Positions 18,688 to 25,647 are shown, counted from the stretch's first letter. The stretch is 64,000 nt of DNA from Burkholderiaceae bacterium (GCA_965284495.1 OZ260105.1:260049-324048), one strand, 5' to 3'. The notes: a model not told the origin generated them from the letters alone. Made by a program: numbers and translations.

Positions 18688-18763
18688 GCCGGTGTAGCTC
18701 AGTCGGTAGAGCAGCTCATTCGTAATGAGAAGGTCGGGTGTTCGATTCATCTCTCCGGCACCA
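18688..18763 (+). tRNA. tRNA-Thr(CGT)
   Basis: 76-nt cloverleaf; anticodon arm GCTCA-TT-CGT-AA-TGAGA; TTCGA T-loop; CCA end; TATAAT at 18672-18677 upstream. Confidence 0.97.
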
Positions 18764-18774
18764 AATCAGCAAAG

Positions 18775-18808
18775 GAAACCCCGCTATCTAAAACGTAGCG
18801 GGGTTTTT
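18775..18808 (+). terminator. Intrinsic terminator downstream of tRNA-Thr (element-borne)
   Basis: AAACCCCGCTA-loop-TAGCGGGGTTTTT. Confidence 0.8.
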
Positions 18809-18822
18809 CTATTGGTGTTGCT

Positions 18823-18841
18823 TGTAGGCAATCTGTAGGCA
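18823..18841 (+). repeat. Putative integrase arm-type sites, left
   Basis: TGTAGGCAATCTGTAGGCA (TGTAGGCA twice, 11-bp period), identical to 25449-25467. Confidence 0.8.
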
Positions 18842-18905
18842 AACGGGCGAAATCTGCTGGGACTGAACGTGCGTTGAAGACGACACCAAAGACCAGCACG
18901 CCACG

Positions 18906-19172
18906 TCATCGATGGCGACTTTCATAGCTTCCGTCTGAGTTTTTCTTCAAGCAGGCCCACGAGAATGCCTGCCCAGAGTTGCGCGCGTTGATGCTGTTGA
19001 ACTCTGCTATGGCTGCAGTACGGCATTCATCGAGTGATGAGAAGTCACCCGAGACGTGCCACTTCTCCGCGCCTCCTTCTCGCCAGCCAATCTCGGCGGC
19101 ATATTTGCCCCCGAATTCGCATCCGGCGAGCAGCGCATAAGCGGCGCAGAGGAATATAGCCTTTCTCCTCAT
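18906..19172 (-). CDS. Small lipoprotein of unknown function (88 aa)
   Basis: MRRK...LLAG-C lipobox; ATG overlaps the upstream stop (ATGA). Confidence 0.7.
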   Translation of the reverse strand: MRRKAIFLCAAYALLAGCEFGGKYAAEIGWREGGAEKWHVSGDFSSLDECRTAAIAEFNSINARNSGQAFSWACLKKNSDGSYESRHR

Positions 19173-19876
19173 GTCGATTCCCCCTGTGTGTTGCGCAGCA
19201 CGGGCCGCTGGTCTCGTCCACGGGGAACACCCATAAAGCCCCGTGCAATCCAGCCAATGCAGGCAGTTAGCGCCCACCCGATGGCTAGACCTCCAAAAAG
19301 TACTTGTAGGGCTTGCTTCCACTGCTCCCAGAGCTTTTGCCGCTTAACCTGCTGCACCCGTTCAAGGTCTTGCGGTTGCAGTTTGAATGATGCAGCGGTT
19401 TCATCCATGTATGCGCGCACATCGCTGTCGTACTCGCTGGCCATCCATACCGTCGGAGGCTCTGCAGGGTCTATCGGCATCTTAAAAAGGTATTCCGCCA
19501 ATCTCGATGCTTCAGAGTGGGCACCCTGGCGCAGCGCTTCTTTTCGAGCGGCGTACACGCGTGCGGCTTCCGGGTTCGACGACGAGACAATTTGCCTGTA
19601 GGGAATAAGGTAACTACCGTTTTCGGCACGGTCGGCAACGAAACAAATCGAGAGGCTGACCTGTTCGCCTCCAGGTGCGACTGCCGTGGTGTACCTACTG
19701 GCGTCTTTTGGGTCGCACGTTTCAGCGGGTCTCGGCGTTGCTCCGTAGGTCTGAACTGCGTATGTGACAGAAGCGTGGGGTTCCGAGAGAACCGCATAAG
19801 CCAAGCACCCGACAGCCCAAAGGCCACCAAATGCCAACGCGATACGTCGCGCGCCTTCAAAAATATTTATTGCCAC
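19169..19876 (-). CDS. Membrane protein of unknown function (N- and C-terminal TM helices flanking a soluble domain)
   Basis: Hydrophobic segments at about aa 12-30 and 195-216; translationally coupled to the lipoprotein. Confidence 0.7.
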   Translation of the reverse strand: MAINIFEGARRIALAFGGLWAVGCLAYAVLSEPHASVTYAVQTYGATPRPAETCDPKDASRYTTAVAPGGEQVSLSICFVADRAENGSYLIPYRQIVSSSNPEAARVYAARKEALRQGAHSEASRLAEYLFKMPIDPAEPPTVWMASEYDSDVRAYMDETAASFKLQPQDLERVQQVKRQKLWEQWKQALQVLFGGLAIGWALTACIGWIARGFMGVPRGRDQRPVLRNTQGEST

Positions 19877-19970
19877 TGCACCCTCCGGCTTCCTTGCTCG
19901 ACTGGTTCATGTTAATCGACCGCTTCCAAACAGCAAAGGACAGAACTCCCGCGTGCCGCAGTGGGACCAA

Positions 19971-20014
19971 ACACCCCCGTTTTTCCGGTGAACGCCCCCC
20001 AAAAACGGGGGTGT
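19971..20014. repeat. Perfect 14-bp inverted repeat in the element non-coding region
   Basis: ACACCCCCGTTTTT-N16-AAAAACGGGGGTGT. Confidence 0.9.
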
Positions 20015-20212
20015 CAGCGCCTGGGCCTTTTAGGGCCTGACAAATCCCGCGCCTCGCGCACGCGCGCGGAACGTTCCACCCAATGCAGAAAGCCCCACAG
20101 CGGGGGCTCTCTTTTATGGCCCGAAAACGCGGCGCGTTCCCGGTTTTTCGTCTGTACTTCGCCGTACTGTAGGCGGCCTCGCCCGGAACCCGTGGGCTTT
20201 CTCGTGGTTTCT

Positions 20213-20482
20213 CTAACCAACGTCTCCCGGCCTGGGGCGCAGGGCGTCGGGCAGCTTCCACGCATCGCGGTCGCGGCCATACAGCGGCGGCGGCTTCCAG
20301 TGGCCTTGCACCAGTGCAGACAGCCCCGTGATAACCAGACGGTCTATCAGCGCCTGAGTGTTGCTGTTCGGGAAAAGCCCTTGCGCTGCCTGTAGGGCCT
20401 CCACAGCAGCCGGGCCGGGCATGTAGTCCACCCGCGCCCGGCCAGCCCTTGCGGTGGTTTGATTTGGCTCGATTGTTTTCAT
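20213..20482 (-). CDS. Small hypothetical protein, possibly ribbon-helix-helix-like
   Basis: Last ORF of the coupled xis-mob operon; beta-like RVDYMP followed by two predicted helices. Confidence 0.5.
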   Translation of the reverse strand: MKTIEPNQTTARAGRARVDYMPGPAAVEALQAAQGLFPNSNTQALIDRLVITGLSALVQGHWKPPPLYGRDRDAWKLPDALRPRPGDVG

Positions 20483-20486
20483 TTTT

Positions 20487-24096: not shown

Positions 24097-24098
24097 AG

Positions 24099-24116
24099 TA
24101 TAGCTTTTCTGCTATA
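24099..24116. promoter_or_regulatory. Putative antitoxin operator palindrome
   Basis: TATAGC-N6-GCTATA directly upstream of the toxin ATG. Confidence 0.6.
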
Positions 24117-24117
24117 T

Positions 24118-25431
24118 TTAAGCCACCACGCGCAGTGCACCGGGCACGGTCTGGGCATCAAACTGCACACCGGCAAGGCTCAGAATGTGCGCTTCTATCT
24201 GTTCAAGAAACGGGCGCAGGGCGTCAATGCTGCGCGGCCTGTAACCCTCGGCTGTTGCGCTTGGCTTGTGGCCCATCACTTGCGCGATAGCCCCAGCAGG
24301 TGCCCCGGCAGCCTCACCCAGCAGCGAAAAGGAACGGCGCAGGCCGTGGATTGTCAGGCCCTCGATTGCAGCGCTTTGCAGGGCCTTTGCATGGCTGTTG
24401 CGGGTGTCTGTAATGCGCCCTGCTTTGCCCGTGCTGGCGAACACAAACGGCCCCACCCTGGGCAGCGTTGCCAGCATGTGGGCCACGTAAGGGCTCAGGG
24501 GAATGGTTCGGGTGGTATCCACCTTGTCGGCAATGGTCAGCTTGCGCCACTGAAAATCCACATTCGCCCACGTCAGGGCGGCCAATTCTTCACGGCGGGC
24601 GCCTGTTAGCAGCAAGGCGCGCAGATAGGCGCTTGCGGTGCGGTTGCTCAGTTGCTCCACGCCAGCCCACCAGCCGGGCACCTGGGCGGCTTCCAGGGCG
24701 TCGGTGCGGCGTGTGTTGCTGGGCAGGTTCTCGACAATGGCGGCTGCCTTGCCCGCATCGCGGTCTGTCAGGTTCCGATACTCAGGGCGGGCAGCACACC
24801 AGCGCAGGAAACCCCGGAACATCATCAGGGCGCGGGCGGCTTGGTGCTTACCTGCCACGGCTTCGCGGTCGTACCAGTTTTTCAGTGTGTCCTCATTCAC
24901 GCCAGCTAGCGGCAGTGCCAGCAGCGGGTACAGCGGCCCCGGCCTAGTCGTGCCCTGCCCTCGTTTTTTCTTTTCGCCACCAGGGGCGGCCATCGCTTCA
25001 AGGTCGGCACGGTAGCGGGGCTTCCATGCTTCTTTGCGCTTGGGTCTGCCATTTTCCAGATACAGCGGCCACACCTCGCCCACGGTCAGGGCTTTGGCAG
25101 TTGCTGCGGCCTTTACGGCGGCTTTGTCTGCCTGTTGCTGGCGCTCTATCTCTCGGGGGTCTTGCCCACTGTCCACCAGCACTTTTAGGCGCTGCGCCTC
25201 CCCCCTTGCCTTTTCAATCGGCCAATCGGCGGCAGTGCCGATGTTCATGCGCAGGGTTGCCCCGTTCAAGCGCGCTTCAAACACGTAGGTTTTGCGGCCC
25301 GTGGGCGTCACGCGCAGCGCCAGGGCGGGGGCTTCGGTGTCCCATAGGAACGCCTGCGATTTACCAGCCGGGCAGGTGAAGGCGTCAACCCGGCCAGCGG
25401 TCAGCCTCACGCGGTTTTGTTGCTTGCTCAT
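24118..25431 (-). CDS. int: Tyrosine recombinase/integrase with N-terminal arm-binding domain (P4-like)
   Basis: LWDTEAPALALRV...KTYVF arm domain; catalytic R (GARREE), HGLRR and GH..Y. Confidence 0.93.
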   Translation of the reverse strand: MSKQQNRVRLTAGRVDAFTCPAGKSQAFLWDTEAPALALRVTPTGRKTYVFEARLNGATLRMNIGTAADWPIEKARGEAQRLKVLVDSGQDPREIERQQQADKAAVKAAATAKALTVGEVWPLYLENGRPKRKEAWKPRYRADLEAMAAPGGEKKKRGQGTTRPGPLYPLLALPLAGVNEDTLKNWYDREAVAGKHQAARALMMFRGFLRWCAARPEYRNLTDRDAGKAAAIVENLPSNTRRTDALEAAQVPGWWAGVEQLSNRTASAYLRALLLTGARREELAALTWANVDFQWRKLTIADKVDTTRTIPLSPYVAHMLATLPRVGPFVFASTGKAGRITDTRNSHAKALQSAAIEGLTIHGLRRSFSLLGEAAGAPAGAIAQVMGHKPSATAEGYRPRSIDALRPFLEQIEAHILSLAGVQFDAQTVPGALRVVA

Positions 25432-25448
25432 GGTGCCCCTCTGAAATC

Positions 25449-25467
25449 TGTAGGCAATCTGTAGGCA
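25449..25467 (+). repeat. Putative integrase arm-type sites, right
   Basis: Identical 19-mer to 18823-18841. Confidence 0.8.
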
Positions 25468-25533
25468 GATTCGCTAAAAACTGCCGAATTTAAATCAACA
25501 CAAAGACTGTTTATTTATCCAGCAAAAACAATC

Positions 25534-25546
25534 TAAGTTTTTGATT
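25534..25546 (-). promoter_or_regulatory. IHF consensus site between arm sites and att core
   Basis: AATCAAAAACTTA matches WATCAANNNNTTR. Confidence 0.6.
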
Positions 25547-25553
25547 TACATTG

Positions 25554-25582
25554 ATTCTACCAACAGCAATCAACAGGGGCAA
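25554..25582 (-). promoter_or_regulatory. Putative sigma70 promoter of int
   Basis: TTGCCC-N17-TAGAAT. Confidence 0.55.
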
Positions 25583-25596
25583 ATGCACCTATCCCA

Positions 25597-25647
25597 TCAT
25601 TCGTAATGAGAAGGTCGGGTGTTCGATTCATCTCTCCGGCACCAAAT
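25597..25647 (+). repeat. att duplication (3' part of tRNA-Thr)
   Basis: Identical to 18716-18766. Confidence 0.97.

Follow-up and report, generated by a model that had tools for sequence, protein, structure and literature searches.

The locus described here raises the question of whether a small block of DNA beside a tRNA gene is an element that can still move between cells and, if so, where its transfer would begin. Together with the tRNA gene, the block occupies positions 18,688 to 25,647 of a 64,000-nucleotide stretch from a Burkholderiaceae bacterium (GCA_965284495.1 OZ260105.1:260049-324048), which was analyzed as a whole and is called the window below; related loci and genomes are cited by L and G numbers. 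An earlier interpretation of the same DNA (the sequence-only reading) had proposed a compact integrative mobilizable element (IME) that carries an integrase, a relaxase, and a toxin–antitoxin pair. We conclude that the block is probably an intact canonical IME of 6,881 bp with a MobV relaxase, that its family, present for the most part in Comamonadaceae, had not been described before, and that it has a likely internal origin of transfer (oriT) and would depend on a helper for its transfer.

The insertion and its ends are defined by the following features.

18688-18763, plus strand: tRNA-Thr(CGT), the integration target (ARAGORN)
18716-18766: attL, the copy of the 51-bp direct repeat that overlaps the tRNA 3′ end (perfect repeat)
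25597-25647: attR, the distal copy of the 51-bp repeat (perfect repeat)
18778-18808, plus strand: element-borne terminator hairpin, ACCCCGCTA...TAGCGGGGT followed by a T run (sequence reading)
25649-25682, plus strand: original tRNA-Thr terminator, now 6.9 kb away through the insertion (sequence reading)
24118-25431, minus strand: P4-type tyrosine integrase (Arm-DNA-bind_3 and Phage_integrase domains)
18823-18841: tandem TGTAGGCA with an 11-bp period, candidate arm-type integrase site in the tRNA-proximal arm
25449-25467: tandem TGTAGGCA, candidate arm-type integrase site in the int-proximal arm

The length of 6,881 bp is the spacing between the two perfect 51-nt repeats, and the last 48 nt at the 3′ end of tRNA-Thr(CGT) come from the element-proximal att copy. 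The hairpin at 18778-18808 substitutes for the displaced tRNA terminator, and a similar hairpin occupies the same place in L008 and L009. In relatives with an empty site, the original terminator lies directly behind the tRNA. When the two element flanks were joined and queried against the genomes of relatives, the same-genus genome G020 gave one contiguous match over the full 720 nt (query 1-720), and in about 10 further same-genus genomes the match crosses the junction (query 1-402). The uninterrupted stretch in G020 comprises fbp (99.7% amino-acid identity), tRNA-Thr, orf88, a gene resembling that for single-stranded DNA-binding protein (SSB), and tRNA-Pro. The insertion is real because the joined flanks are contiguous in these same-genus relatives, and the earlier placement of the element in tRNA-Thr with a perfect 51-bp att duplication is thereby upheld by the ARAGORN tRNA, the exact repeat, and the empty site. 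A P4-type integrase inserted the element at the tRNA-Thr(CGT) 3′ end, rebuilt the tRNA, and gave it a new terminator.

The element accordingly possesses what an IME needs at its ends, namely a site-specific recombinase and att repeats at a defined target. The integrase is 77% identical to that of a Variovorax element in the same tRNA-Thr and 43-53% identical to integrases at other tRNAs. Of the five copies of TGTAGGCA in the window, four form the two tandem pairs near the element ends. These tandem 8-mers look like arm-type sites for the arm-binding domain of the integrase, and GGCTACA pairs are their counterparts in L010 and L012.

The same target is occupied by other DNA in further relatives of the genus, where insertions at tRNA-Thr(CGT) span 10-74 kb and include extra att copies. 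About 74 kb separate the tRNA from the displaced terminator in G006, which has two extra att copies in a tandem array; the distance is approximately 28 kb in G007 and 10.6 kb in G008, and G010 is a further relative of this kind. Because of these insertions and extra att copies, tRNA-Thr(CGT) can be regarded as an integration hotspot in the genus.

Mobility by conjugation is suggested by one gene of the element.

20942-22048, minus strand: mob, encoding a MobV-type (Mob_Pre) relaxase of 368 aa (Pfam, NCBIfam, and alignment of motif III with structure 4lvi)

The encoded protein scores above the cut-off of Pfam Mob_Pre (PF01076; 28.1 bits against 25.5) and matches NCBIfam MobV (NF041497) at E 3.6e-13. 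It contains both motifs expected of a MOBV relaxase, with H32-N-L-R35 as motif I (HxxR) and H133-R-D135-E136...H140-L-H142 as motif III (HxDE...HxH). In an alignment of ten homologues with 58-88% identity to the window Mob, residues H32/R35, H133/D135/E136, and H140/H142 are invariant, as is the acidic C-terminal tail DG.TRERDE..HDL..W. We take H32 to be the equivalent of the catalytic histidine of MobM. As judged from the predicted protein, the catalytic motifs are intact, and the inactivating mob substitutions that the sequence-only reading had named as grounds for its rejection were not seen. With its Mob_Pre score, its MobV match, and its invariant motifs, the element can be said to encode a relaxase of its own. 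In an exhaustive phmmer search with Mob, the matches, grouped at 50% identity, formed 1,004 clusters for E ≤ 1e-3 and 201 for E ≤ 1e-30, and the named homologues are annotated "plasmid recombination protein." A plasmid origin of Mob was considered and rejected, the best plasmid matches being Paracoccus MobV plasmids with 26-31% identity over half the protein.

A search for 11-mers common to nine elements picked out a 21-nt stretch within mob, which is part of a hairpin that has a second possible partner upstream.

21202-21226, minus strand: candidate oriT core inside mob, hairpin CGAACCCTA-TCCTGTG-TAGGGTTCG (sense strand, 21226 to 21202)
21248-21255, minus strand: upstream arm TAGGGTTT / TAGGGNTT, a direct repeat of the 3′ arm (covariation with the 5′ arm)

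The hairpin spans mob codons 275-282 and is present in every Mob-type relative. Its 17-nt core CCCTATCCTGTGTAGGG does not vary among 13 distinct mob genes, the products of which share 57-88% identity. The flanking stem positions vary jointly (AACCCTA/TAGGGTT, AGCCCTA/TAGGGCT, ATCCCTA/TAGGGAT), and because these stem changes keep base pairing, the residues flanking LSCVG vary (T/A/S and F/L/I). The upstream arm pairs with the same 5′ arm, such that an alternative and mutually exclusive hairpin can form. Three pair types occur at the variable position of the hairpin, and the upstream arm covaries as UA/CG/AU. In the two alternative hairpins, 92.6% and, for the upstream arm in a 12-sequence alignment, 99% of cells are paired, and slid pairing registers drop to 12-58%. 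Third-codon pairwise identity is 1.00 over codons 275-281, which is the top seven-codon window in mob (gene mean 0.55; catalytic motif I window 0.84), and the unchanging Leu codon, CTA, and Val codon, GTA, are seldom used by the host (1.5% of Leu and 8% of Val codons). As DNA, the hairpin has a predicted fold of -14 kcal/mol (z = -3.0).

Metagenomes extend this picture. All four Watson–Crick pairs are found at the variable stem position among 79 distinct copies, about 60 of which are paired. Of 92 exact matches to the core, 66 lie within a Mob gene on the sense strand, and for some 16 others the contig is too short to show Mob but the flanks are complementary. The informative figure is the approximately 82 of 92 that lie in Mob genes or have complementary flanks, because the raw count of 92 may be near chance expectation (for a collection size that was estimated, not measured). 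In one clade (metagenome L046 and similar, eight distinct copies), the middle arm has A and so do both partner arms, which produces a conserved internal mismatch.

The locus L045 has a mosaic mob gene. Its identity to L003 falls from 91% upstream of the core to 66% downstream, and its identity to L009 rises from 69% to 82%, which places the switch of parents within the 17-nt core. Known MobV origins combine a direct repeat with three inverted repeats that overlap, and hairpin switching exposes their nick; the pMV158 oriT has overlapping repeats around a GTGTG/T nick, and MobM, its relaxase, uses a histidine for catalytic cleavage (PMC5863519). Relaxases, including Mob/Pre of pE194 and pT181, also catalyze oriT–oriT recombination (PMC4902927). 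Because relaxases recombine oriT copies and the pMV158 oriT has the same repeat and nick logic, the hairpin at 21202-21226 is most likely the oriT and is our best candidate. By analogy with GTGTG/T of pMV158, the nick would fall near CTGTG/TAGGG, at approximately 21211/21210. The oriT likely lies inside mob and not in intergenic DNA. Just upstream, at 21265-21300 within mob, there are two short palindromes of the type AATCCCATAGGGATT that encode a repeated NPIG peptide; both repeat the TAGGGNTT arm, and the relaxase may bind there as well.

The element belongs to a previously undescribed family, mainly of Comamonadaceae. Related loci of 5.2-6.9 kb, with the shared gene order int, variable slot, alpA, orf135, mob, occur in Acidovorax, Variovorax, Hydrogenophaga, and metagenome-assembled genomes of Comamonadaceae or Burkholderiaceae, and the Mob protein has a patchy distribution (4 of 36 same-genus genomes), which also speaks for mobility. 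Four loci have perfect repeats.

L008: tRNA-Ser(CGA), repeat of 65 bp, spacing 5,762 bp
L009: tRNA-His(GTG), repeat of 42 bp, spacing 5,170 bp
L010: tRNA-Thr(CGT), repeat of 48 bp, spacing 5,723 bp
L012: tRNA-Met(CAT), repeat of 42 bp, spacing 6,755 bp

A further locus, L006, adjoins tRNA-Lys, which brings the targets of the family core to five different tRNA genes (Ser, His, Met, Lys, Thr). The search that the sequence-only reading had recommended, for the same gene order at tRNA-Thr in other genomes, thus finds its match in L010. Identical Mob proteins are found in different flanks, and together with the five tRNA targets, this leads us to consider the family currently mobile. The slot after int holds a Gp49–HTH (helix-turn-helix), a HigB-like–HTH, or a BrnT–BrnA pair, depending on the member (L043-L045, L037-L040, and the window).

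Eleven frames are present in the interval, all open and co-directional on the minus strand, among them every gene that the sequence-only reading had named. Besides int and mob, they are accompanied by the following features.

25554-25582, minus strand: promoter-like site upstream of int, TTGCCC-17-TAGAAT with TG (consensus scan only)
23773-24096, minus strand: Gp49/HigB-like toxin (Pfam Gp49, 93 bits)
23486-23776, minus strand: XRE-type HTH antitoxin (HTH_31 at 47 bits, HTH_3, phrog_1373)
22891-23391, minus strand: orf166, with AT-hook-like KRGRGRPKK, in the variable slot (no HMM match)
22486-22767, minus strand: AlpA-like small HTH protein, candidate excisionase or activator (HTH_17, phrog_66)
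22041-22400, minus strand: orf135 family member of about 119 aa from a GTG start, winged-helix-like (low-confidence model)
20487-20951, minus strand: orf154, conserved, with a coiled-coil C-terminal half (no HMM match)
20213-20482, minus strand: orf89, small conserved protein (no HMM match)
19169-19876, minus strand: predicted membrane protein of 235 aa, cargo (ORF; no HMM match)
18906-19172, minus strand: predicted lipoprotein of 88 aa with lipobox LLAGC, cargo (ORF; no HMM match)

Searches of the 11 open reading frames (ORFs) with hidden Markov models (HMMs) revealed no replicase, coupling protein, or type IV secretion system (T4SS) component and no Rep motif or family, in agreement with the sequence-only reading and with what is expected of an IME, which carries no coupling-protein or mating-pore genes of its own. 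The domains of the integrase and of the toxin–antitoxin pair were likewise as that reading had assigned them. The latter is a predicted type II pair, in which a Gp49/RelE-fold toxin gene overlaps an XRE-HTH antitoxin gene downstream by 4 nt. No HMM matched orf166, orf135, orf154, orf89, or the two envelope ORFs. The only homologue of orf166 is in L009 (67% identity), and orf89 is 70-91% identical in L008, L009, L013, and L024. A homologue of orf154 with 47-50% identity is also present in Mob-less islands (class C). The tightly coupled operon that had been proposed is apparent from the junctions: the winged-helix gene orf135 and mob overlap by 8 nt and are described as translationally coupled, mob overlaps orf154, and 4 nt separate orf154 from orf89.

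Assignments of the small proteins fared less evenly. The AlpA-like protein is conserved in all family members; its proposed role as excisionase is backed by phrog_66 (E 6.5e-5), but HTH_17 reaches 17 bits and stays under its cut-off. For orf135, proposed to be an HTH protein, a model with a predicted local distance difference test score (pLDDT) of 59 gives Foldseek matches that are all winged-HTH regulators and weak (best E 0.016), which hints at a winged-helix-like DNA-binding protein. The ribbon-helix-helix label given to orf89 was not confirmed, with no match in Pfam, NCBIfam, PHROG, or PADLOC and, for an AlphaFold2 model with pLDDT 61, no Foldseek match below E 3. A pattern of disordered N terminus, helix, and helix is all that fits such a fold, and a ribbon-helix-helix accessory factor is possible and unproven. 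The lipoprotein gene is joined to the upstream 235-aa gene by an ATGA overlap. Neither envelope gene was found in the related loci compared by tblastn with the proteins of the window, and a defense role for this cargo was rejected because PADLOC gave no match.

The front end of the element is shared with islands of another type. The orf135 family numbers at least 1,732 proteins, every one labeled "hypothetical" and none with a Pfam domain; among the named ones, the closest (90% identity) belongs to Alicycliphilus denitrificans L032 (CP002449.1). There, an island of about 7 kb at tRNA-His contains int, orf274, an alpA-like gene, orf117, orf95, a primase-helicase, and a VRR_NUC protein. The primase-helicase (650 aa; PriCT_2/Toprim_3/AAA_25) stands where Mob would be, and the metagenomic twins L033-L036 are alike, which bears out the earlier description of a layout like that of phage-inducible chromosomal islands (PICIs) with a relaxase in the place of the primase. 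Nucleotide identity between L032 and the Mob-type L009 is 95.9% over att and int (1,672 bp). Over alpA and the winged-helix gene, L032 is 82-85% identical to the window, L008, and L009; the stop codon of the winged-helix gene marks the end of this similarity. A third class with the same front end (L037-L040) carries orf143/186 (weak HTH_36), an orf154 homologue, a DUF5681 protein, and orf82, with neither relaxase nor primase. These comparisons show a recent exchange of cassettes between relaxase- and primase-type islands.

Directly 3′ of orf89 is a second region that has to be considered as a possible oriT.

20115-20222, minus strand: conserved non-coding block of about 108 nt, TTCCGG...AAAGTACNGCGAAGTAC...CCGGAA (nhmmer)

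The block is single-copy in the genome by nhmmer and is present only in family members with orf89. An extra segment of about 60 nt at 20050-20115, in the gap 19877-20212, is flanked by GAAC and contains a hairpin resembling a terminator (20091-20108). A strong inverted repeat, ACACCCCCGTTTTT...AAAAACGGGGGTGT, lies at approximately 19990-20035 in the non-coding DNA that separates orf89 from the envelope genes; it may be a bidirectional terminator dividing the core operon from the cargo.

Several observations weigh against an intact, helper-dependent IME with its oriT in mob, and some of them concern the hairpin itself. Approximately 13 of some 76 genuine hairpin copies are mismatched at the covarying position, and the hairpin could act at the RNA level. 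It is conceivable, although rather unlikely, that the element is an IME in which the mob hairpin is a feature of the mRNA or protein and the true oriT is either the block at 20115-20222 or DNA upstream of alpA. In favor of the block are its conservation, its TTCCGG/CCGGAA inverted repeats on either side of an invariant AAAGTACNGCGAAGTAC, and its co-occurrence with orf89; in addition, most known oriTs are intergenic (preprint 10.64898/2026.01.13.699239). However, the block is missing from L010, L011, L012, L041, and L006, members of the same relaxase clade that all have the hairpin, and we therefore rank it as second choice. Moreover, the amino acids flanking LSCVG change in step with pairing, synonymous sites are frozen, and a DNA-level mosaic breakpoint maps within the core, all of which speaks against this alternative. 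If the nick is in mob, the block lies in the leading region, and we speculate that it is an accessory-protein site or a site for single-strand initiation or complementary-strand priming.

The remaining observations on that side concern the relaxase and its helper. Mob is divergent: its 50 bits fall below the NCBIfam MobV cut-off of 100, such that the earlier MOBV assignment holds by Pfam and not by NCBIfam; it aligns with the MobM structure 4lvi over motif III only (E 0.012); and plasmid relaxases among 72,556 plasmids (PLSDB) reach at most 31% identity. In the host genome (5.22 Mb, single contig), neither VirB4 (PF03135) nor a coupling protein (PF12696, PF02534) was found by searches that do detect these genes in G020 and G006, and VirB4 is also absent from the Mob-bearing G015, G023, and G034. 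The search for TraC of mating-pair formation type G (TIGR03744) gave no match anywhere, controls included, and hence is uninformative. Because VirB4 and coupling protein are lacking in the host genome, the helper must be external, and because no helper was found, the element may be stranded: an island that integrated once, lost its helper, and is now inherited only vertically, decaying, with relaxase and integrase no longer used. The approximately 60-nt insertion in the window's block, relative to L008, L009, and L024, agrees with such a fate. We nevertheless consider it improbable, given the eleven open frames, att copies identical over 51 bp, intact catalytic residues, an empty site in the closest relative, five tRNA targets, and identical Mob proteins in different contexts. 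Far less probable still is a phage satellite or replicative island whose Mob/Pre serves recombination or rolling-circle replication of the excised circle, even though the int-alpA-winged-helix front end is common to primase-helicase islands of satellite-like layout and Mob_Pre proteins were originally named for plasmid recombination. The closest characterized protein relatives of Mob are the mobilization relaxases of small plasmids, no Rep motif or family was found, and among the eleven ORFs there are no capsid, packaging, or interference genes, with PHROG matches limited to int, the toxin–antitoxin pair, HTH, and AlpA. Because it has no phage-related genes, we do not regard the element as a phage satellite.

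As a helper-dependent IME, the element would operate as follows. The integrase would excise a non-replicating circle, binding to the arm sites formed by tandem TGTAGGCA and assisted by the AlpA-like protein. The relaxase, aided by the coupled winged-helix protein and perhaps by orf154 and orf89, would nick the hairpin within the gene that encodes it (21202-21226). A conjugative plasmid or integrative and conjugative element entering the cell would supply the T4SS and coupling protein, through which the relaxase-bound strand would be exported. First to reach the recipient would be the 3′ part of mob, together with orf154, orf89, and the conserved block; there, the integrase would re-insert the element at tRNA-Thr. 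The Gp49/HTH toxin–antitoxin pair would discourage loss, and the two envelope genes would be cargo. IncP-1 plasmids are the first helper candidates, by analogy, because IncP plasmids mobilize other MobV IMEs (PMC5704250); they also induce PIME excision through alpA (preprint 10.64898/2026.01.12.698999).

By its predicted gene content, the element qualifies as a canonical relaxase-only IME, of which none had been described in Proteobacteria according to a 2017 review. It resembles Tn4451/Tn4453 (Clostridium), Tn5520 (Bacteroides), ATE-1 (Trueperella), and IMESag-rpsI (Streptococcus), which are small (5-12 kb), carry their own recombinase and a Mob_Pre/MobV relaxase, and likewise lack a coupling protein or mating pore, and several of which are IncP-mobilized (PMC5704250). 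Those IMEs belong to Firmicutes, Bacteroidetes, and Actinobacteria, and several use serine recombinases or other targets, whereas the family described here has a P4-type tyrosine integrase at tRNA 3′ ends, a front end of AlpA and winged-helix genes, and an oriT candidate that lies within mob and not upstream of it. Similarity to pMV158 extends from the HxxR and HxDE...HxH motifs of MobM, the MOBV1 prototype, to an oriT-like region with a direct repeat, overlapping inverted repeats whose hairpins exclude each other, and, where loop meets arm, a sequence of the GTG/T type. The MobM oriT is, however, intergenic and overlaps the mobM promoters, whereas the window's hairpin lies within mob codons and its nick is placed by analogy. 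With Gram-negative PICIs and P4-like satellites, the element shares a tRNA target occupied through a P4-type integrase and a co-directional operon that begins with an AlpA-like regulator, but it has a relaxase in place of a primase or replicase and no capsid-redirecting or packaging genes; a primase is found only in the sibling islands. The elements known as PIMEs, GIsul2, and the IncP islands are Pseudomonadota IMEs with int and alpA that are induced and mobilized by IncP plasmids and require alpA for excision (preprint 10.64898/2026.01.12.698999). Membership in the PIMEs was rejected: these are defined by a replicase and trbJ/trbL (and MobP-type tra genes) and measure 12-22 kb or more, whereas the window has only int and an alpA-like gene and none of those defining genes. 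What is new here is the proteobacterial family, the internal oriT candidate, and the chassis held in common with primase-type islands.

Beyond attR, between tRNA-Thr and tRNA-Pro (25844-26511), lie two ORFs, one of 88 aa and an SSB-like one of 99 aa (Pfam SSB, 32 bits). They are considered to be outside the element because they are conserved in the empty-site genome G020, and they may be a remnant of an older element.

Relaxase-only IMEs are thought to be very common and have barely been characterized in Proteobacteria. The family described here is small and clean (5-7 kb) and widespread in freshwater, soil, and wastewater Comamonadaceae, and plasmid-centered surveys would miss it because no PLSDB plasmid carries a close relative. 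Methods for oriT discovery look at intergenic DNA upstream of relaxases (preprint 10.64898/2026.01.13.699239), and others discard candidates contained in the relaxase gene. If the internal oriT is true, such pipelines would systematically miss sites of this type.

The front end held in common with primase-type islands is a concrete case of module exchange between satellite-like and conjugation-hitchhiking elements. A broader model, which we regard as possible but doubtful, is a modular chassis (P4-type integrase, toxin–antitoxin slot, AlpA, winged-helix protein) that switches lifestyle through one DNA-processing cassette and has its oriT at the place in mob where the catalytic N-domain gives way to the C-terminal domain, so that oriT–oriT recombination shuffles the two halves. 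A MobV relaxase would then make it a conjugative hitchhiker, a primase-helicase a replicative satellite-like island, and the DUF5681 cassette a third type. If this model is true, oriT–oriT recombination would reshuffle the catalytic domain and recognition arms against the C-terminal (helper-docking) domain and leading-region genes, which would give the family a built-in means of re-matching to new helpers.

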